Source: a virus. Taken from it: a DNA stretch of 64,000 nucleotides. Of the stretch, positions 4,265 through 49,466 are shown in pieces. The translations under genes and the position numbers were made by a program. The number at the start of each line of letters is the position of its first letter. Positions within the stretch are counted from its first letter, which is position 1. The stretch is from the IMG/VR virus record IMGVR_UViG_3300042396_000723, positions 32,001-96,000 of that record; one strand, given 5' to 3'. The notes beneath the pieces were generated by a model. The model saw only the letters and a program-made list of their open reading frames with translations, made no database searches and was not told the origin of the DNA.

Positions 4265-4500
4265 TATTTAACATCCTCCAGTGATTCAATTGGGGTAATG
4301 GTTGAATCGGAATCGTCACCTTGACCGGGGGGAAGTTGACGATTATTTGTGGCATTTATAGACCCGCCGAACCAATAGGTTAAAGTCCCTACACTTTTCT
4401 CGAATAATGTCTTGATAGCGGTTTCAACTGTCATCCCTCTGACTCCAAAAAAGACAAGTAAAGTTAGCGCAGAAACGAAAACAATTCTTGAGGGTTTCAT
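4264..4500 (-). CDS. small secreted/membrane protein
   Basis: 78 aa with signal-peptide-like N-terminus. Confidence 0.3.
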   Translation of the reverse strand: MKPSRIVFVSALTLLVFFGVRGMTVETAIKTLFEKSVGTLTYWFGGSINATNNRQLPPGQGDDSDSTITPIESLEDVK

Positions 4501-4512
4501 AAGTAAAGGCTC

Positions 4513-5985
4513 CTATTTATTAATTAAGACTTTGGACTGAGAGGACTGAGATAATTGAGACTCCCATGCGGGTTTGAGGTAATTCGTGTAACGCTTGTTA
4601 GTAGAACGCGGCTCTATTCCTAACTCGCTACAAATTTGTTTTAGGGGTGATGGAATCAAACCGTGGGAATATTTAAAAGCCCGAAGTTCAAGAGAAGATT
4701 TAAACAGGGCAGTATTAACCTGCTCCCACCAATCACTATCCGGGTCGGTTGATTTGGCACTGGCAAAGGTAACGTTAAATCCTGATAGGTCAGGAATTGA
4801 AACTACTCTTGATTGCCCTTTGATTGTGCAGATAGCGGGTCTTTTCCCTTCCTTGAGCAACCTTTCAGCTATCTCTATTAACCCCGTTTTCTCCCCTGCT
4901 AAATACCGTAACTGCGATTCAGGGATTGATGGGTAGCAGATTATTAATTGAGCTAAATTTTCCAGTGTTGCCAAAGTAAAACCACCCTCACCGACGGACG
5001 CGGATTGACCCACGGGGATTAACTTAATCTTGTAGCCTCTACCCTGCTTAATGATCTCAATTAGCTTATCGAGCCGGGAATTGGTTTTGTCTGACTTGTA
5101 TCGTTCCACGATACTGTCAAATTCTTCGCAGATTAGGCAAATCGGAGTCAGGTCAACTTGAATTTCTGATATCTTTTTGGCTCCGTTTTTGGCTCCGTCA
5201 ACACAAGCCTTAATCCGTTTATCTAATTGGGCGTGAACGTGATCAATTAGGCTATCAATCTCGTCATCGGGTTGCTTGATCCATTCGGTGTCCAACCCAA
5301 ACCAATTATTAAGATAACCGTCATTATCGGGCTTTCCATAGTTCGGGTCAGCAATAAACAGTTGACCATCGGGGTTATTCTCAAGCCATTGACTGATTAT
5401 CAATCCCAGGAGTTTAGATTTTCCCGACCCCGTGCCACCCGTTAGCCTTTGATGTGGCAACGATAGAAATTCGGATACCCAACCCGAATCATCTTTGATT
5501 GATTGAAACTTAGACTTGATTTCCGGTGGGATAGCGCGGATCAACAGTTGAGATGATTTGGCATAACCTTTTTCTCCAAAGTCCCCTAGACTATCCAAAG
5601 CCTGACCAACTCCCCAAACTGTCCAACTAACTGATTTAGCCAAGGTATCGGGGACGGTGCGGGGTAGATCCTCAAGTTTGACCATAGACTCATCCCCTAG
5701 TATCAACCCCGCTAAAGCACCAAGGCATCCCACGCCCGCTAAATATAGAAGGATTGAATTATTAACGGGTTTACGCTCAATTACCAAAACGCTACCCCAT
5801 TCTCCTTTCTGAGATTGGTGGGGTGAGATACCTTTTAAATCCTCAATCTGAACAGTCGCAGCGCTGAATAAACCAATGGCTGAAAATCCTAAACTTGCTG
5901 CAACGGCAACCCCCCAATTATCCTTAGTGAAGTTATTTGGTCTTGCCATCTTTAGCCTCCTTTTCTGCCAATTGTTTAGCCTCAA
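4513..5985 (-). CDS. FtsK/SpoIIIE-family P-loop ATPase with N-terminal membrane anchor
   Basis: 490 aa; two N-terminal TM segments; Walker A GGTGSGKS followed by LFIADPNYG (FtsK-like hhhhDPK), Walker B LICEEFD, then QGRGYKIKLIPVGQS. Confidence 0.55.
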   Translation of the reverse strand: MRLNNWQKRRLKMARPNNFTKDNWGVAVAASLGFSAIGLFSAATVQIEDLKGISPHQSQKGEWGSVLVIERKPVNNSILLYLAGVGCLGALAGLILGDESMVKLEDLPRTVPDTLAKSVSWTVWGVGQALDSLGDFGEKGYAKSSQLLIRAIPPEIKSKFQSIKDDSGWVSEFLSLPHQRLTGGTGSGKSKLLGLIISQWLENNPDGQLFIADPNYGKPDNDGYLNNWFGLDTEWIKQPDDEIDSLIDHVHAQLDKRIKACVDGAKNGAKKISEIQVDLTPICLICEEFDSIVERYKSDKTNSRLDKLIEIIKQGRGYKIKLIPVGQSASVGEGGFTLATLENLAQLIICYPSIPESQLRYLAGEKTGLIEIAERLLKEGKRPAICTIKGQSRVVSIPDLSGFNVTFASAKSTDPDSDWWEQVNTALFKSSLELRAFKYSHGLIPSPLKQICSELGIEPRSTNKRYTNYLKPAWESQLSQSSQSKVLINK

Positions 5986-10967: not shown

Positions 10968-11261
10968 CTATCTAGTAAAACTGATTTGAGCATCCCAGAG
11001 GGTTTGAAGCCACTGGTTTTGCGTGGGCATTAAGTGTTGATTTTTTTCTCTTAACGGATGCGGGAACATCCTCCGAGCTAGTTTAGATGCTGCGATCGCA
11101 TCTTTTTTAGAATGAAAATACCCAGGGAAACGTCGCCCTGATGCCAAGTGAGTAACCCCCCAGTAATCGTCGTCAATCCGATGTACAGCGATCCACTTTC
11201 TGATAGTTGCCTTTACTTTCCATCGCCCATAAATAGTATGGGTTACAATCGTTTTTCTCAT
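10968..11261 (-). CDS. hypothetical protein
   Basis: 97 aa. Confidence 0.35.
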   Translation of the reverse strand: MRKTIVTHTIYGRWKVKATIRKWIAVHRIDDDYWGVTHLASGRRFPGYFHSKKDAIAASKLARRMFPHPLREKNQHLMPTQNQWLQTLWDAQISFTR

Positions 11262-11449
11262 GACTCAACCCTTGTTCTTGTGATAACTGAAACGGGAACC
11301 CCGTCCCAATCTTCCTGGATATAGTATCTGCCAGTGCCAGATTTATTCATTTCCTCGCACTTTTTCCGAGCTTGATTAAATCTCGGATAAGACGCGATAA
11401 TAACGCCTTTTCCTAGTTCCCAAATCGCGTAGCCTTTCTGTTTGCTCAT
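11258..11449 (-). CDS. hypothetical protein
   Basis: 63 aa; overlapping stop/start with downstream gene. Confidence 0.3.
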   Translation of the reverse strand: MSKQKGYAIWELGKGVIIASYPRFNQARKKCEEMNKSGTGRYYIQEDWDGVPVSVITRTRVES

Positions 11450-11541
11450 CTTTCTGTCTTAATGTTAATTTGGCATATTCAATAGCAAAAAATATGCCCC
11501 CTTTATACTGTTTTTCCCTGTATGGATTGGGGGCTTAAACT

Positions 11542-11697
11542 TTAAGCTCGTTTTAATCTCGAACCATATTGAACGTGATGGTATAGAGTCTCAACAGTTT
11601 TGAACCGATGCCCACAGTCTGGACATTTCCGCTCTCGGTACTCTTTCCTCGTGCCGACTACACAAGTCTTTTCAGCGTTGCATTTAGGACATTTCAT
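11542..11697 (-). CDS. zinc-ribbon small protein (not in ORF track)
   Basis: My own translation: MKCPKCNAEKTCVVGTRKEYRERKCPDCGHRFKTVETLYHHVQYGSRLKRA (51 aa), CxxC...CxxC; GGAGG upstream; start overlaps the TAA of a 32-aa upstream ORF (TAATG). Confidence 0.45.
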   Translation of the reverse strand: MKCPKCNAEKTCVVGTRKEYRERKCPDCGHRFKTVETLYHHVQYGSRLKRA

Positions 11698-11898
11698 TAC
11701 AACACCTCCTCCTTCTTGTTGTAAAAGTCTTTTAGTTCGCTAATGGCTTTAATGAGAAGATCAATTTCTGGAGAATAACGCTTCGTACTTGACATCTGGT
11801 TTCTGGTTAATGGGTTAAAAAAGGGGTGTAGCTAGAGGGCTTTCCACCCCAGGAGATTCTTACTTACACAAACGTTTAAATGATTAAACGATTTTTGT

Positions 11899-12054
11899 CT
11901 AAACATCACCTCCTTCATCTTCGGCTTCAATATCAATTGAAGCATCCGCTTTTTCTAGCAGCCATTCGATAAATTCTTGGTAGATTTCTTCTTTGGTCAA
12001 AGAAGGATAATCTATTTCTTCTGTGTCACCACAAGCTCTAAATATTGCTTTCAT
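11899..12054 (-). CDS. small acidic protein (not in ORF track)
   Basis: My own translation: MKAIFRACGDTEEIDYPSLTKEEIYQEFIEWLLEKADASIDIEAEDEGGDV (51 aa); ATG overlaps TGA of upstream gene (ATGA). Confidence 0.35.
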   Translation of the reverse strand: MKAIFRACGDTEEIDYPSLTKEEIYQEFIEWLLEKADASIDIEAEDEGGDV

Positions 12055-12347
12055 GATTCTCCTTTCTGCTTGATATAATCCCCAAGCGATAAAACATAAA
12101 CTTCTGTCCCTTGTTCAATTGTTCCTTCGCTCCATTCAGGCTTGGGGATTCCCTTAGAGATTCCTAACAAAGTAACTGTTACCGAGGGGACGCTGTTGCC
12201 GTATCCGTTGGTAAAGCGGATATGGGTTAGTGGCTTATGAAATCGGGATTGATAGTAAGGTTTAATCTCCCGATATTCCTCTAGCTTCACGCCGGAGGCT
12301 ATCATGTCAAACCACTTTTTCTTGATGGCTAGAGTTAAGGTTTTCAT
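12051..12347 (-). CDS. ASCH/DUF3850-like domain protein (tentative)
   Basis: 98 aa; N-terminus MKTLTLAIKKKWFDMIASGVKLEEYR resembles the ASCH beta-barrel N-terminal pattern. Confidence 0.35.
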   Translation of the reverse strand: MKTLTLAIKKKWFDMIASGVKLEEYREIKPYYQSRFHKPLTHIRFTNGYGNSVPSVTVTLLGISKGIPKPEWSEGTIEQGTEVYVLSLGDYIKQKGES

Positions 12348-12379
12348 AACCCTTTTCCTGCTCTCATAAGTTCATTGAT

Positions 12380-12589
12380 CTAGCGAGTGCGATCGCGCCC
12401 CGCTTGTTGACCATCTTCATAACACCCTTGATCAAGGTGTGCTATTACTTCATCCCCTTTCAGGAGCCACCATTTCCGGTGATAAGGGACAGAACCCGTA
12501 GCGGTTCCCCAGAGTTCAACGCCTTCGGGCATCGCGTAATAATCTTTGTCGTAATTTGAAGCCACCCGTCTAATTTCTGATGCGTTCAT
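12380..12589 (-). CDS. hypothetical protein
   Basis: 69 aa. Confidence 0.3.
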   Translation of the reverse strand: MNASEIRRVASNYDKDYYAMPEGVELWGTATGSVPYHRKWWLLKGDEVIAHLDQGCYEDGQQAGRDRTR

Positions 12590-29934: not shown

Positions 29935-32058
29935 TTATGCCGTGTAAATTATTGTTATTTTAACTGGTTTTGATAAAATATTTTCGCTATTTGTTGGATG
30001 ATTTATTATTTGTATGTCCGCCACTGACACGGACACGGAAAAATGAAGACCAACAAACTGTGTATCATATCCAGACAATACAAACGCGTTTGCGCTGAAT
30101 TCCACTAATACTGTGACGGATACAATTTTTGAAACCGTAACTCCATGAGCTATTAATGCAACCCCCCCTTCAGTTGCAGCCGTAGTCCCCGTCAAAACTT
30201 TAATCTTAATCCCTGGATGATTAGCGTCCCCACCTAAAGAACTGAAACCACCAACATATTGATTTCCTCCAATCCCCTGTCCCCCAGGAATTACACTAGC
30301 TCCCGTGGTGGGAGATGTTGAAGGTGTTGTGGAATTAGTTGATATCACACCTCTTAGGTAGGTATTGGTGATACTTGAATCACCAATTGTTACGGTGTTT
30401 GAGCCGTTACCGGTGGCGTTAAAACAAAATACGTTTTCGTTGGTTGCGTTCTGGGTTCCTTTTGTATTTGCGCCAAAAAAACAAGAGTTATTTGAGATAG
30501 TTAGACCTGTAACGCCGTCAGAAGTGAAGCGTCCTGCACCAACTCCAAAACCTGCCAAATTACTCCCTGTTATATTGCTGAAAAGCGCACCAACTCCAGA
30601 GGCAGTTAAATTATTCCCTGTAGTGTTATTTTCTAAAGCCCCAACGCCAAAAGCAGACGAATTATTCCCTGTAGTATTAGAACGAAGCGCATTAAGTCCA
30701 GCGGCAGTTAAACTACTCCCTGTAATATTGGACAAAAGCGCACTAACTCCAACTGCCGTTGAATAATTCCCTGTGGTGTTATTTTGTAAAGCCCCAGTTC
30801 CAAAACCTGCCAGGCCAATACCTGTGGTATTGGCCTGGAGCACACTAACTCCTGTTATTGTATTTGTGTCTAAACTCCCCCCTCCTCTCCCAATAGGAAT
30901 CAAATTATAAGAATTGGCACTAACAGTACCAGCAAAAATAGCACCCGTAACCCCTAAACTAGCGACCCTTAAAGCCCCTGTAGTTGTTGATGTTGATTGG
31001 GTTGATAGGGGAATATGAAATCTCGAACTATCAACAGAGAAATAAGTAGTCGCACCATCTCCCCAGGATTGAATCCCTGTCGATATATCTCTCTCCCACC
31101 ACGTTCTAGTGGTACTCAGGGGAATGTTAAAGGAAGCATCAACAGCTATCCCGTTATGAAAACTGGTTGTATTCCAGTCTACACCATTAGCTTTCCGACA
31201 AAGCCAAGTTCTTTCTGTTATTATGTTTCCTGATGCCCCTGTTTTTGAAGATAAAACTTGAAAATCTCCAGATGTACTACCGAGAGGAGACCCTTGATAT
31301 AGACTAACTCCTGCACCTAAAGAACCTATTATGTTTCCGTTTACTGCTAGATTCCCCGTGATAGTCCCACCCGCCAATGAAAGATAGGAATTAATATCAA
31401 TTGAATAAGTCCCATCCCCTGTTTTCTTTAGGAATCCTGGGGTGTCGGATAGCGATTGAATAGCAATTAATTCGTTGCCGATACTGTTAGTTGAAACCGC
31501 AGTTACTTGACCCTTAGCATTGACAGTAATAGCAGGAATTGAACTAGCACTACCGAAAGAACCAGCATTACTATTGACCGTTGCCAGTGTTATCGCACTT
31601 GTAACATTGGCTGAACCATCAAAAGATACTGAATAACTAGCATCCCCCGTTGTTGTAATTGTCCGTGGCGTGGTTAGTTTTAAAGCCTCTCCCGCAGTAG
31701 CAGAACTCGATATCTCAACATAAACAGAACCCGACCATCGGTAAACTTTATTAGTCGTTTCATCAACGTAAATCTTTCCAGTTTCACCCGTACCTGGGAA
31801 CCCGGCAAGGTTTGTATAACTCAGGACATCATCAACATAAGACGGTAAAAGCCCAGATGAAATTGTGCCAGACGCGGCGTTTAAACTTGTTAAAACTTCG
31901 TTACCAGTAGACGCGATCGCACCAACATCAGACGCGGTTAAACTAATCTGAGCTTTAGGAACCTTGGTATTTGAATCCAAGGTAGCCACACCATTAGCCA
32001 TTGCTTTCTCTAATTGCAAAACAATCAAAGAATAATCAATATCCGAAAACATTCCCAT
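29935..32058 (-). CDS. tail fibre protein
   Basis: 707 aa; GKIYVDETTNKVYRWSGSVYV and SIPAITVNAKGQVTAVS phage-fibre repeat motifs; many NTTG/NITG Gly-rich repeats. Confidence 0.8.
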   Translation of the reverse strand: MGMFSDIDYSLIVLQLEKAMANGVATLDSNTKVPKAQISLTASDVGAIASTGNEVLTSLNAASGTISSGLLPSYVDDVLSYTNLAGFPGTGETGKIYVDETTNKVYRWSGSVYVEISSSATAGEALKLTTPRTITTTGDASYSVSFDGSANVTSAITLATVNSNAGSFGSASSIPAITVNAKGQVTAVSTNSIGNELIAIQSLSDTPGFLKKTGDGTYSIDINSYLSLAGGTITGNLAVNGNIIGSLGAGVSLYQGSPLGSTSGDFQVLSSKTGASGNIITERTWLCRKANGVDWNTTSFHNGIAVDASFNIPLSTTRTWWERDISTGIQSWGDGATTYFSVDSSRFHIPLSTQSTSTTTGALRVASLGVTGAIFAGTVSANSYNLIPIGRGGGSLDTNTITGVSVLQANTTGIGLAGFGTGALQNNTTGNYSTAVGVSALLSNITGSSLTAAGLNALRSNTTGNNSSAFGVGALENNTTGNNLTASGVGALFSNITGSNLAGFGVGAGRFTSDGVTGLTISNNSCFFGANTKGTQNATNENVFCFNATGNGSNTVTIGDSSITNTYLRGVISTNSTTPSTSPTTGASVIPGGQGIGGNQYVGGFSSLGGDANHPGIKIKVLTGTTAATEGGVALIAHGVTVSKIVSVTVLVEFSANAFVLSGYDTQFVGLHFSVSVSVADIQIINHPTNSENILSKPVKITIIYTA

Positions 32059-46181: not shown

Positions 46182-49100
46182 ATGGTCACAACCTTAAACC
46201 GTCAAAATCCCCGTCGCCTTGATGCTGCTCCTACGGAAGTGCAGATGAAACTTGGTATTTCTCAAGTTTTGTCGATGCCATTTGCCTACAACTCTCCGGT
46301 TATCGTTCTGGATTTTGAAGTAGGCAATAAAAACATCATCAAGGGACGGTTTAAGGATGCCATTAGATCCCGTGTTTTTGAGTTTGAGATTGGGGATTCT
46401 ATCACGTTCAAGCCGTTCACCTGGAGGCGAACGGATAGCGACGTTGACCCGATGGCATGGGAAGACTTCTCTAAAGGGTATTGCTACCGATTCGATGCAG
46501 TCAAGACCGTCAGAAAGGAAAAACCTAAGTGTGGCAATACTTCTTATAACTGCGGTAAAGCCTGCATTGGCTTAAACAAGAATTGCAAATCAGATCCCCC
46601 CGATAAACCGTCCCAGGAGAAAGTTGATAAACTCAGAGCCGCGGCAGGGGAGTTTAAAGCTGTTCAGGGCGATCCAACCAAGAAGCAAGAGGATAATAAG
46701 TTAACGCCAAAACCACAGGAAGTTAAGGAAGTCGCGCCCACCCCCTCTCCCGATAAAGCAGAAGTCCCTGTCACCGACCTTGCTAAACAGCCACCTGTTG
46801 CCTTAAAAATTGGTAAAAAATCAGTCAACCTAAAAGACGACCTTGATTCCTACAAAGATTTAAGAATAACCGCCGATCCCGTTTTAGGTTGGCAAGTTAT
46901 CAATAAGAATGGGAACGTACTGAGAGAACCGCCCAAGGGCAACACGGCTCCAAGTCATAGATTCAAGAAAAGAGAGCAGGCTGAAAAGTTTGCTAACGAT
47001 GTGATGACACGGGTTGAGAAGTTGCAGAAGGCTCAACCAAAACCGGATGCTGATGTAAGTGACTCTGATAAAAGGTCATTTGAAAGTCTTTACACCACAA
47101 AATTATCATCCGCCCAACAGTTGCTTAACTTAGAAAAAAACGCAAAAATAGCGCGAATATCTCCCAGTGAAGATCAAAAAAATTATGACAAAAAACAACC
47201 CGACCTCAATATTGATTCGGGGCCAGGAATAATGGAAGGTTGGAGGACTGCGAAACCAGACGGATCTGTCCAGGGAATCCCTTGGTCTGTCAAGGCGGAG
47301 GGTCAAGAAAAGTCACGGGCTATCGTGGGTGCTAGATTAACGGATCATCCAGCCAGCCCTAATTTAAAAAGACTCAGGTTATACGACGCAGACGGACGTA
47401 ATGAGACAATTGACTTCAAAAAGGGTGATAGAAACGCATCTCTTAGGGCTAGAAGACTTGTTAGAGAAATCGCACAAGGAAAGTCTCAAGAGATGGAATC
47501 TGGCGACATAAAAGCGTTGATTGAGGGAGGTAAAGAGGGTTTAGCTAAAAGAAAAGTGGAAAAGGCAAGATTAGCTGCTGAAGACAAGCAATTTAAAGCA
47601 GCCTTAGATGATTATTTAAAATCAAAAAACCTAACAAGAGAAAGCATTAAAGGTTTGACCGATATCGGAATGGACGATCTTATCGAAAAAGTTGAGAAAT
47701 ACCAGAAATCACGATCTCAAACCCCCAATTCAGCAGGGGATAAGGGTGCGGGGGGTAAAACGTTTGACCTAAATGATTTATGGCGACAAACCGCCGACGC
47801 TGCTTATTCTAAAAACAAAGATGGTGTCTCAAAAAATCTTGAGCAATGGAAGGAAGTTGTAAAAAAATTAGAGTCAGGAGAAGGGATCTCTAAAGACGTT
47901 AACTTAAACGAATACGAAAAGTTAATGGATAATTTAGAAAAAAAATTAGTCCTCGATCCCAAAGATCCGTCTAATGTTGAATTTAAAAAGATTACGGGAT
48001 CTATTTCTAAGATTCTTAGTAAAGCAGGCAGTCTCAACCCGTTAACACAAGAAGACCTAGAAAAAGCTCACCCTAACTTTAGACCAATCATGCAACGAAT
48101 TAATAAAACCGTTGCTAAGGATTATGAATTATTTGACAAAAAAGAGCGAGTTCAAAAAGAGTTAAATAGCCTAAAACAAGAAAAATCTTATAACGAGGCT
48201 GTGATATTAAATAATTCAAAACGATTCCGAGAAATAGGTATTAATAATAACGAGGTAGAAATTCAAAGACTTTCCAAGAAAAAACCGAGCGATTCAGTTG
48301 AGGTTAGAAATCCTGTCTCAAATTTACCAGAAAGGACTATTTCGGCATCCAAACGGATTAAGGAACTTCAAGATGAAATTGGGGAATTGAATAATAGTGA
48401 AAAAGCTAAAATAGAAGAAGACAGGGCTAGAAAAGAAATAGCCCGATTGCAAAGCCCAATGAAGGATGCAGAGAGTAGAATAAACGCCATTTTAGACGAG
48501 AAGAAAAAATTAAGGGAATCTCGCGGCGGATCTAGTTCACAATCAGAACCCAAGCAAACCCCAAATTCAGTAGGGGTTGATGGTGCGGGGGGTAAATCAG
48601 TTGATCAACAATATAAGGATATAATTGCTAAGTCGAAAGATCCAAAGGGAACAGAGGAAGTTTTATCGTCAGCATTAAGAGGTGGGTTTGGTGACTTTGA
48701 AAGAAAAAATTATAACGAATATTCAACCGCTATAAAATCTGGGACTGTTCCAAAAGGAATGGGGAACTATTATCAAAAACAAGTCGACAAATATAAACCC
48801 ATTATTGAGGCGGAAGATTTTATTAACGAAAGGAAGAAAAAAGCAATTAGTGGAGACTATGAAACAGAACAAGAAGCTGGGGTTTATGTTCTTAATAAAT
48901 TAAAGCAAAAAGGCTACAAAGAACACGAATATTATGACAGTCCAGACTATGAAAAAGATTATGGAAAATTGGTGGGGGTAATGAAATCTGTTAAACTTCC
49001 TCCGCCGTTGTCTGGTATCGTCCCCGGTAAAGAATTAAAACAGACATTAACTCCGGGTGACAAACTACTTGTTAAAGAGGATACTTATTCGTTAATGAGT

Positions 49101-49466
49101 AGTGGAAATACCCCTACTGGCTATCGAATAGTTGATGGTGGCGAAGTTTTAAAGGTTAATGTCAAGAATGTTAAAACCCGCGTTAGAGGCGAATACATGG
49201 GGAAACCCTACGAGAACGAGCCGTCTCTCGCTCTTGATAAAGTTACCCACGTCATCCGAGATGGTAAACGTTACAAGGTAGATGATTCTGATAGATCCCC
49301 CAATGACTTAAAGTCGGAATCCTCCAAATCCCAGAAAGCAGTAAAACAAAAGGCAGTAAAACAGAAAGCAATAAAAGTTCAAGGGGAGCGATCGCAAAAA
49401 CAAGAATCCCCTCTAATTCCGAAAGAGGAAATAGTTAAAGATGCTCCAATACTGATGTTAAGGTAA
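46182..49466 (+). CDS. polymorphic effector family member B (long repeat-containing C-terminus)
   Basis: 1094 aa; shared N-domain and KPKCGNTSYNCGKACIGLNKNCKSDP; internal repeats NSAGDKGAGGKTFD / NSVGVDGAGGKSVD; lysine-rich. Confidence 0.5.
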   Translation: MVTTLNRQNPRRLDAAPTEVQMKLGISQVLSMPFAYNSPVIVLDFEVGNKNIIKGRFKDAIRSRVFEFEIGDSITFKPFTWRRTDSDVDPMAWEDFSKGYCYRFDAVKTVRKEKPKCGNTSYNCGKACIGLNKNCKSDPPDKPSQEKVDKLRAAAGEFKAVQGDPTKKQEDNKLTPKPQEVKEVAPTPSPDKAEVPVTDLAKQPPVALKIGKKSVNLKDDLDSYKDLRITADPVLGWQVINKNGNVLREPPKGNTAPSHRFKKREQAEKFANDVMTRVEKLQKAQPKPDADVSDSDKRSFESLYTTKLSSAQQLLNLEKNAKIARISPSEDQKNYDKKQPDLNIDSGPGIMEGWRTAKPDGSVQGIPWSVKAEGQEKSRAIVGARLTDHPASPNLKRLRLYDADGRNETIDFKKGDRNASLRARRLVREIAQGKSQEMESGDIKALIEGGKEGLAKRKVEKARLAAEDKQFKAALDDYLKSKNLTRESIKGLTDIGMDDLIEKVEKYQKSRSQTPNSAGDKGAGGKTFDLNDLWRQTADAAYSKNKDGVSKNLEQWKEVVKKLESGEGISKDVNLNEYEKLMDNLEKKLVLDPKDPSNVEFKKITGSISKILSKAGSLNPLTQEDLEKAHPNFRPIMQRINKTVAKDYELFDKKERVQKELNSLKQEKSYNEAVILNNSKRFREIGINNNEVEIQRLSKKKPSDSVEVRNPVSNLPERTISASKRIKELQDEIGELNNSEKAKIEEDRARKEIARLQSPMKDAESRINAILDEKKKLRESRGGSSSQSEPKQTPNSVGVDGAGGKSVDQQYKDIIAKSKDPKGTEEVLSSALRGGFGDFERKNYNEYSTAIKSGTVPKGMGNYYQKQVDKYKPIIEAEDFINERKKKAISGDYETEQEAGVYVLNKLKQKGYKEHEYYDSPDYEKDYGKLVGVMKSVKLPPPLSGIVPGKELKQTLTPGDKLLVKEDTYSLMSSGNTPTGYRIVDGGEVLKVNVKNVKTRVRGEYMGKPYENEPSLALDKVTHVIRDGKRYKVDDSDRSPNDLKSESSKSQKAVKQKAVKQKAIKVQGERSQKQESPLIPKEEIVKDAPILMLR

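Follow-up and report, generated by a model that had tools for sequence, protein, structure and literature searches.

The gap of about 600 bp between two conserved genes, g98 (12051..12347) and g63 (11258..11449), in a 64,000-nucleotide (nt) stretch of viral DNA (positions 32,001 to 96,000 of IMG/VR record IMGVR_UViG_3300042396_000723; hereafter, the window) is, by comparison with related contigs, a recombination-prone slot for interchangeable small-gene cassettes. Three open reading frames (ORFs) sit in it here, on the minus strand like the two genes that flank them: a zinc-ribbon gene of 51 amino acids (aa) (Zn51; 11542..11697), a 32-codon ORF directly upstream of it (orf32; 11697..11795), and a gene for a 51-aa acidic protein (acid51; 11899..12054). 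The initial annotation had argued from the overlapping stop and start codons in this cluster that all three are real genes missed by a length cut-off. The ORFs and both overlaps (TAATG and ATGA) are present where it placed them, and both gene pairs have the sequence layout of coupled pairs—a same-strand overlap, with the downstream Shine–Dalgarno (SD) site inside the upstream ORF. The step from coupling to real genes holds for Zn51 and acid51, whose frames are conserved in relatives (the former in four contexts, L088 among them; the latter in L005 and L083), and fails for orf32, a chimera whose whole frame is conserved as a unit only in the identical contig L002. The description of these ORFs as unannotated did not stand either. 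Exact protein matching against a 15-billion predicted-protein collection found Zn51 on 44 public contigs (NCBI, JGI, Logan, ENA), under the name “transcriptional regulator NrdR family protein,” and acid51 on 21, as “hypothetical protein”; only the orf32 sequence is absent from the collection.

What does the slot hold in related phages? The window matches Planktothrix phage PaV-LD patchwise at 87% identity and, on this comparison, is a relative of it—a PaV-LD-like Planktothrix phage. Its minus strand carries every gene from ~15570 down to 200, and the locus is part of this leftward small-gene operon, which is divergent from the module for replication (replication initiator, DnaB). On its left side the slot is anchored by the 98-aa g98, which is a homolog of PaV-LD ORF140L (75% aa identity), matches phrog_625 (E = 2.9e-22), and has more than 590 relatives in IMG/VR, while the right anchor, the 63-aa g63, is PaV-LD ORF138L (95% aa identity). 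Between their equivalents PaV-LD has ORF139L, a 116-aa protein; the locus is not mentioned in the Sandusky Bay PaV-LD paper. We collected g98 relatives from IMG/VR, read the DNA from g98 to g63, and added further contigs. Slot content varied in almost all relatives examined. PaV-LD and L007 carry a gene for a helix-turn-helix (HTH) protein of the HTH_Tnp_1 family (PF01527, 28.3 bits against a cut-off of 24.1), which is preceded by a 142- to 144-aa ORF in L003, L004, and L006, by a 154-aa ORF and then an 86-aa acid51 homolog in L083, and by acid51 and a terminator in L005. A 71-aa gene followed by Zn51 fills the slot in L008, L082, and L085, and in L086 and L087 g98 reads in frame into what is left of that 71-aa gene, again followed by Zn51. 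The slot is ~170 nt long and has no ORF in L011–L016. The window and L002 have acid51, the terminator, orf32, and Zn51, in that order. L009 has at 4339–4626 a 95-aa Cys-rich ORF with many CxxC and CxC motifs and no match in Pfam and PHROG searches, a third kind of small, probably metal-binding protein in the same slot position.

The left edge of the slot varies as well. The C terminus of g98 changes with the downstream cassette (window 12051–12080, minus strand; L003–L009 and L085–L087), ending in ...GDYIKQKGES, ...GDVC, ...GGCCND, or ...GGLEVL, or in a read-through fusion. The junction sequences look alike (GGAGGTGATGT, GGAGATGTATG, GGAGGTTGTTGTAATG), which suggests that SD-like junctions act as recombination microhomologies at the 3′ end of g98. 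Beyond g98, the 69-aa g69 (12380–12589, minus strand) and the 35-aa PaV-LD ORF141L have only their first 16 residues in common; the body of g69 differs between relatives, which points to frequent mosaic breakpoints throughout the operon.

How did the arrangement in the window arise? By tblastn and breakpoint mapping, orf32 consists of two parts: its codons 1–11 (MSSTKRYSPEI) are the 5′ end of an HTH_Tnp_1 gene of the PaV-LD ORF139L type, and its codons 10–32 (EIDLLIKAISELKDFYNKKEEVL) match the 3′ end of the 71-aa gene, the native upstream neighbor of Zn51 in L008, L082, and L085. Three-way alignment puts the crossover point at 11763..11770 (minus strand), in an 8-nt microhomology, CAGAAATT, common to the HTH gene of L005 and the 71-aa gene of L008. 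Homology between the window and L005 spans 11763–12357, taking in g98, acid51, the spacer, and 33 nt at the start of orf32; homology to L008 sets in at 11770 and extends across Zn51 and g63. The reading frame is kept across the junction. Homology to L005, L006, L007, and PaV-LD picks up again at 11512, the edge of a noncoding 3′ remnant of the HTH gene (11450..11512, minus strand; ~60 nt). This remnant equals the last ~26 codons (...EGGIFFAIEYAKLTLR...) and has no entry in the ORF listing; nothing else of the ORF139L-type gene survives in the window except its codons 1–11. We read orf32 from these alignments as the scar of an illegitimate in-frame crossover at CAGAAATT, not an independent gene.

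The donor side of the junction has a history of its own. The 71-aa gene is 5′-truncated in the window, internally deleted in L086 and L087, where only its 11–13 terminal codons are kept, and truncated or altered in P0083 and P0084; its protein has no PHROG or PADLOC match, and the pattern of erosion marks the gene as dispensable. Its last ~40 nt, with the SD site and TAATG, are kept in every variant; it is the sequence for initiating Zn51 translation that is preserved, rather than any peptide. That SD site, GGAGGAGG (11705..11712, minus strand), lies 7 nt upstream of the Zn51 ATG, within the 3′ part of orf32; the initial annotation had assigned this GGAGG to the 32-aa ORF itself. It and the TAATG at 11695–11699, in which the orf32 stop and the Zn51 start share base 11697, are kept in every phage arrangement with Zn51.

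The earlier reading of Zn51 as a C4 zinc ribbon is borne out. The protein (MKCPKCNAEK...CPDCGHRF...) scores 34.9 bits against PF22811 (Zn_ribbon_NrdR; cut-off 27.2, E = 1.5e-8), its residues 1–36 aligning to model positions 1–42, and its cysteines C3, C6, C25, and C28 form two CxxC pairs, a predicted zinc site that is invariant or nearly so in 41 relatives. The AlphaFold2 model has a pLDDT of 92–95 for residues 1–30 and below 60 for the tail. A Foldseek search of the PDB with this model returned NrdR for all of the top eight matches, four of the eight at a root-mean-square deviation (rmsd) of 0.9–1.2 Å over 43–45 columns and 36–40% identity. In the model, three strands form a zinc ribbon that superposes on the N-terminal domain of NrdR, about 1 Å from the E. 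coli protein. Zn51 has no ATP-cone match, ending at residue 51, and its TIGR00244 score of 19.2 bits is below the cut-off of 124.65. By these scores it is a PF22811 member and not NrdR proper—a stand-alone NrdR-type C4 zinc ribbon. An exhaustive HMMER search recovered ~40 further short stand-alone relatives (45–66% identity over residues 1–42); the family comprises ~40 clusters at 50% identity. PF22811 matches every one of the 41 aligned members, Zn51 among them, and the family profile matches solved NrdR structures at E of about 1e-11. The equivalents of NrdR DNA-contact residues are largely retained among the 41: R17 in 33, R21 in 41, R23 in 39, and R31 in 28. PHROGs places Zn51 in phrog_10675, with matches to families of unknown function only.

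Other searches with Zn51 gave little more. A C2H2 finger, which needs C-X2-4-C-X12-H-X3-5-H, was rejected: H40 and H41 are adjacent, with no second His at +3 to +5. The matches to Aart, consensus ZnF, and eukaryotic poly-ZnF proteins were set aside too, being due to a repeated KCPDCGHRF-like motif only. A scan of a genome collection yielded no further stand-alone close relatives; of the two matches inspected at the ORF level, L094 is a bona fide NrdR and L110 an IS1 InsA-like ribbon, and the rest look by title like ordinary NrdR of unrelated bacteria. A tblastn search of isolated phages gave two marginal matches only.

Is Zn51 a real phage gene, and does it move as a unit? Its conserved frame argues for the first. 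It is intact in at least four upstream contexts: the window and L002; L008, L082, and L085; L086 and L087; and L088, from Planktothrix agardhii assembly GCA_000464725.1 (contig KE734699.1, 12792–20941). The L088 copy is a 49-aa variant (WP_422630665.1) whose codons 1–38 differ from the window by three synonymous changes and one nonsynonymous change and whose tail has diverged. DNA homology between L088 and the window begins exactly at the ATG and stops 29 nt past the stop codon (window 11513). The homologous DNA includes a hairpin 3′ of Zn51 (11496..11534, minus strand; GCCCCC...GGGGGC, then AUAUUUUUU, from RNA folding), which is also found 3′ of the Zn49 gene in L088 and is part of the mobile cassette. 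The window and L008 have 0 mismatches over 11416–11770, against 15/192 in g63; identity across the cassette next to a diverged anchor argues for recent horizontal spread. Zn51 thus looks, from these comparisons, like a discrete mobile module that has spread recently. In L088 the neighbors of Zn49 are a UvrD-type helicase, two small ORFs (one HTH-like by eye), and ORFs of 456 and 817 aa, the last two without a Pfam match; the element may be another phage or plasmid sharing the Zn cassette.

The other cassette is acid51. Its ATG overlaps the g98 stop as ATGA (12051–12054), and its SD site, AAGGAG (12059..12064, minus strand), 4 nt upstream of the ATG, travels within the cassette, whose edge lies ~23 nt upstream of the ATG; homology to L083 runs from window 12077. 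A copy in L005 is 98% identical and forms a precise gene-sized cassette, and PaV-LD and L008 lack the gene by a precise indel, the C terminus of PaV-LD ORF140L (...GGDVQTKI) aligning with that of acid51 (...GGDV). The 86-aa homolog in L083 (P0004) follows a different upstream gene and has a longer acidic tail; over 45 codons it differs from acid51 by seven synonymous and eight mostly conservative nonsynonymous changes, with the frame kept. By these comparisons acid51 is a real gene and a self-contained cassette. The protein has 16 D+E against 4 K+R (isoelectric point 4.05), and its AlphaFold2 model (pLDDT 82) shows a beta-hairpin and a single helix, with the acidic tail disordered. Foldseek found no meaningful PDB match (best E = 3.7), and searches gave no family match and nothing significant in PHROGs; perhaps it is a protein-binding accessory factor. 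Two 519-aa proteins in its 90% cluster (P0095, P0096) are unrelated, a clustering artifact of the protein collection.

Downstream of acid51 lies a terminator candidate (11817..11850, minus strand), which RNA folding shows as a hairpin GGGGUG...CACCCC (11823–11850) followed by UUUUUU (11817–11822). The hairpin and its run of six U are conserved in PaV-LD and L005, and are probably an intrinsic terminator closing the g98–acid51 transcription unit; a simple terminator scan missed the element because its loop is long. A search of the locus found no convincing sigma-70 promoter. A 37-aa ORF over the spacer hairpin (11832–11945, minus strand) was rejected as a gene, being unconserved in PaV-LD. Between the acid51 stop and the hairpin lies an AT-rich palindrome, AAACGTTTAA-ATGA-TTAAACGATT (11870–11893), which is missing from PaV-LD.

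How might these parts work together? We propose that the beginning of the resident HTH_Tnp_1 gene became linked to the tail of the 71-aa gene by illegitimate crossover at CAGAAATT. Through this fusion Zn51 lies downstream of the translation start that had served the displaced HTH gene, with the TAATG overlap retained, and presumably also under that gene's promoter, while acid51 would be the last gene ahead of the conserved terminator. The NrdR ribbon of ~43 residues binds DNA as a pair via arginines; its D15 and R17 give DNA specificity, and NrdR ribbons pair on their own, burying ~1200 Å2, the pairing building the tetramer (PMC9110341). From the anatomy, homologies, breakpoints, and predicted fold described above we infer that Zn51 would be a small zinc-dependent DNA-binding regulator that pairs through its ribbon like NrdR and replaces the HTH protein. 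It would be insensitive to nucleotides, with no dATP/ATP sensing, because it has no ATP-cone. Its position also fits a slot for small regulators, since Zn51 sits where sibling phages have the HTH protein or, in L009, the Cys-rich one. Taken as a whole—cassette slot, acid51, Zn51 as a regulator in place of the HTH protein, and orf32 as a scar—this is the account we consider reasonably likely.

Several observations weigh against this account. Zn51 has R17, but G replaces the specificity residue D15, and it reads YRERK where NrdR has RRRR, with two of the four arginines kept; given G15, its target is unlikely to be the canonical NrdR box. No candidate Zn51 operator was identified, and our literature search found nothing on stand-alone or phage NrdR-like ribbons, their DNA binding and expression included. 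L011–L016 carry neither Zn51 nor the HTH gene, so whatever function the slot serves is dispensable there. The phage copies of Zn51 are nearly clonal, which leaves one diverged copy (L088) and family-level conservation as the evidence for selection. The in-frame junction of orf32 has one-in-three odds even without selection, and orf32 itself may be translated.

Could Zn51 act through protein contacts instead, as an Ogr/Delta-like activator of RNA polymerase or a Lar-like antirestriction ribbon? Small phage zinc-ribbon proteins of both kinds exist, and the corresponding models pick up a few of the stand-alone ribbons as well (three on PF04606 Ogr_Delta, two on Lar_restr_allev). Zn51 itself matches Lar_restr_allev weakly (E = 0.012), at 16.3 bits where 28.6 are needed, and has no Ogr_Delta match; PADLOC defense models match none of Zn51, acid51, and g98. 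With NrdR as every top structural match and arginines conserved at the NrdR DNA-contact positions, we consider a role through protein contacts unlikely.

A second possibility is that Zn51 is a decoy or antagonist of host NrdR, pairing with the host ribbon or filling NrdR boxes, and so uncoupling expression of host ribonucleotide reductase (RNR) from the dATP/ATP signal to give more deoxynucleotides to a phage that may lack an RNR of its own. The fold and sequence that Zn51 has in common with the NrdR ribbon and the capacity of NrdR ribbons to pair with each other (PMC9110341) are what this idea would need, and the annotation of PaV-LD lists no RNR within its first 50 kb, nor was an RNR-sized match seen among the large ORFs of the window. 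It fits poorly with the G at the specificity position, with the place of Zn51 in an old and diverse stand-alone family, which makes it no recent copy of a host NrdR, and with the unrelated HTH protein that holds its position in relatives. A search of the window for NrdR boxes (ACACWATATATWGTGT, three mismatches or fewer) gave two matches against 0.81 expected, i.e., chance level; both have three mismatches and lie away from the promoters of interest, and there are no nrd genes or NrdR boxes near Zn51. The decoy role seems improbable for this protein. For stand-alone cone-less NrdR ribbons in general, we put little weight on their being a phage tool against host NrdR, by heterodimer formation or competition for boxes; if true, phages without their own RNR would unlock host RNR expression during infection.

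That a length cut-off hid three independent functional genes here, orf32 among them, is a still weaker proposition. orf32 starts at the ATG used by the HTH gene in relatives and so is probably translated, its in-frame junction leads into the TAATG overlap, and its tail, a predicted amphipathic helix, is the conserved C terminus of the 71-aa protein. Yet it is a two-part chimera confined to the window and L002, was never called in public data, has no SD site of its own (the upstream sequence is ...ttaaccagaaaccagATG), and derives from a donor gene that has eroded differently in L086 and L087. The missing frame conservation largely refutes an independent orf32, and we give that reading very little credence. 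The last alternative, chance open frames in a noncoding spacer, is barely credible and is refuted for Zn51: the ORFs are short, and dN/dS is uninformative between phage copies that are nearly clonal (the cassette is 100% identical at the DNA level between the window and L008), but when the 611-nt gap was shuffled with dinucleotides preserved, two sense-strand ORFs of 51 aa or more with an ATG start turned up in only 20 of 2,000 replicates (1%), both Zn51 and acid51 have strong SD sites at the right spacing and stay intact in different contexts with diverged homologs, and Zn51 has a Pfam score above the cut-off and a confident predicted fold.

What follows from this locus? For annotation, a stop/start overlap with a good SD site is useful, and not sufficient, for calling small genes. 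The locus is also a breakpoint-resolved case of cassette exchange in freshwater cyanophages, in which a small putative HTH regulator appears to have been swapped for an unrelated zinc ribbon under the same start signals. It draws attention to an uncharacterized family of stand-alone NrdR-type ribbons of ~50–130 aa, whose conserved arginines suggest that they bind DNA without nucleotide control. These findings leave current understanding in place, and Zn51 and acid51 had already been called in public data.

Elsewhere in the window, four large plus-strand ORFs at 46182–49466 (1094 aa), 56125–57549 (474 aa), 57651–59516 (621 aa), and 62134–63585 (483 aa) appear by eye to have a conserved ~150-aa domain in common at the N terminus (...TEAQMKL.IAQTLS.PFAYNSPV.VLDF...RPRVF.F...C.KPT.YNCG..CI...NCK.N) ahead of unrelated C termini. 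The one pair compared is 40% identical (E = 7e-47), and the 621-aa ORF contains an internal duplication.

How does this locus compare with known systems? NrdR (PDB 7p37, 9fxk, 9gex; TIGR00244) has at its N terminus the same C4 ribbon of ~43 residues, CPxC...CxxC...RFxTxE, at 36–40% identity to Zn51 and an rmsd of ~1 Å for the best-superposing chains, and Zn51 keeps the equivalents of its arginines R17, R27, R29, and R37. Unlike NrdR, Zn51 is without the ATP-cone, nucleotide sensing, and the cone-driven switching among tetramer, octamer, and dodecamer. The stand-alone PF22811 mini-proteins of 46–133 aa from genomes and metagenomes agree with Zn51 in domain, length class, and conserved positions; G15 is found in 5 of the 41 members, and the His-rich tail is Zn51's own. 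Small Cys4 zinc proteins that regulate transcription are also encoded by phages P2 and P4, whose Ogr and Delta proteins activate late genes; these differ from Zn51 in Cys spacing, and the best folds for Zn51 are those of NrdR, not of the PF04606 family, to which it has no significant match. The ORF139L-type HTH_Tnp_1 proteins (112–137 aa) have the slot, start codon, and upstream sequence of the orf32–Zn51 locus and, like Zn51, are small and presumably DNA binding; their helix-turn-helix fold is unrelated to a zinc ribbon. At the level of the genome, mosaic junctions and moron-type exchange of cassettes at gene boundaries were reportedly described in lambdoid phages by Hendrix, Juhala, and colleagues, and the likeness is close: gene-sized indels with their own SD sites, sharp breakpoints at or near gene boundaries, short junction microhomologies, and near-identical cassettes in diverged backbones. 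The cassette exchange seen here is ordinary phage mosaicism, with the difference that one junction falls inside two coding sequences and makes an in-frame chimeric mini-ORF.

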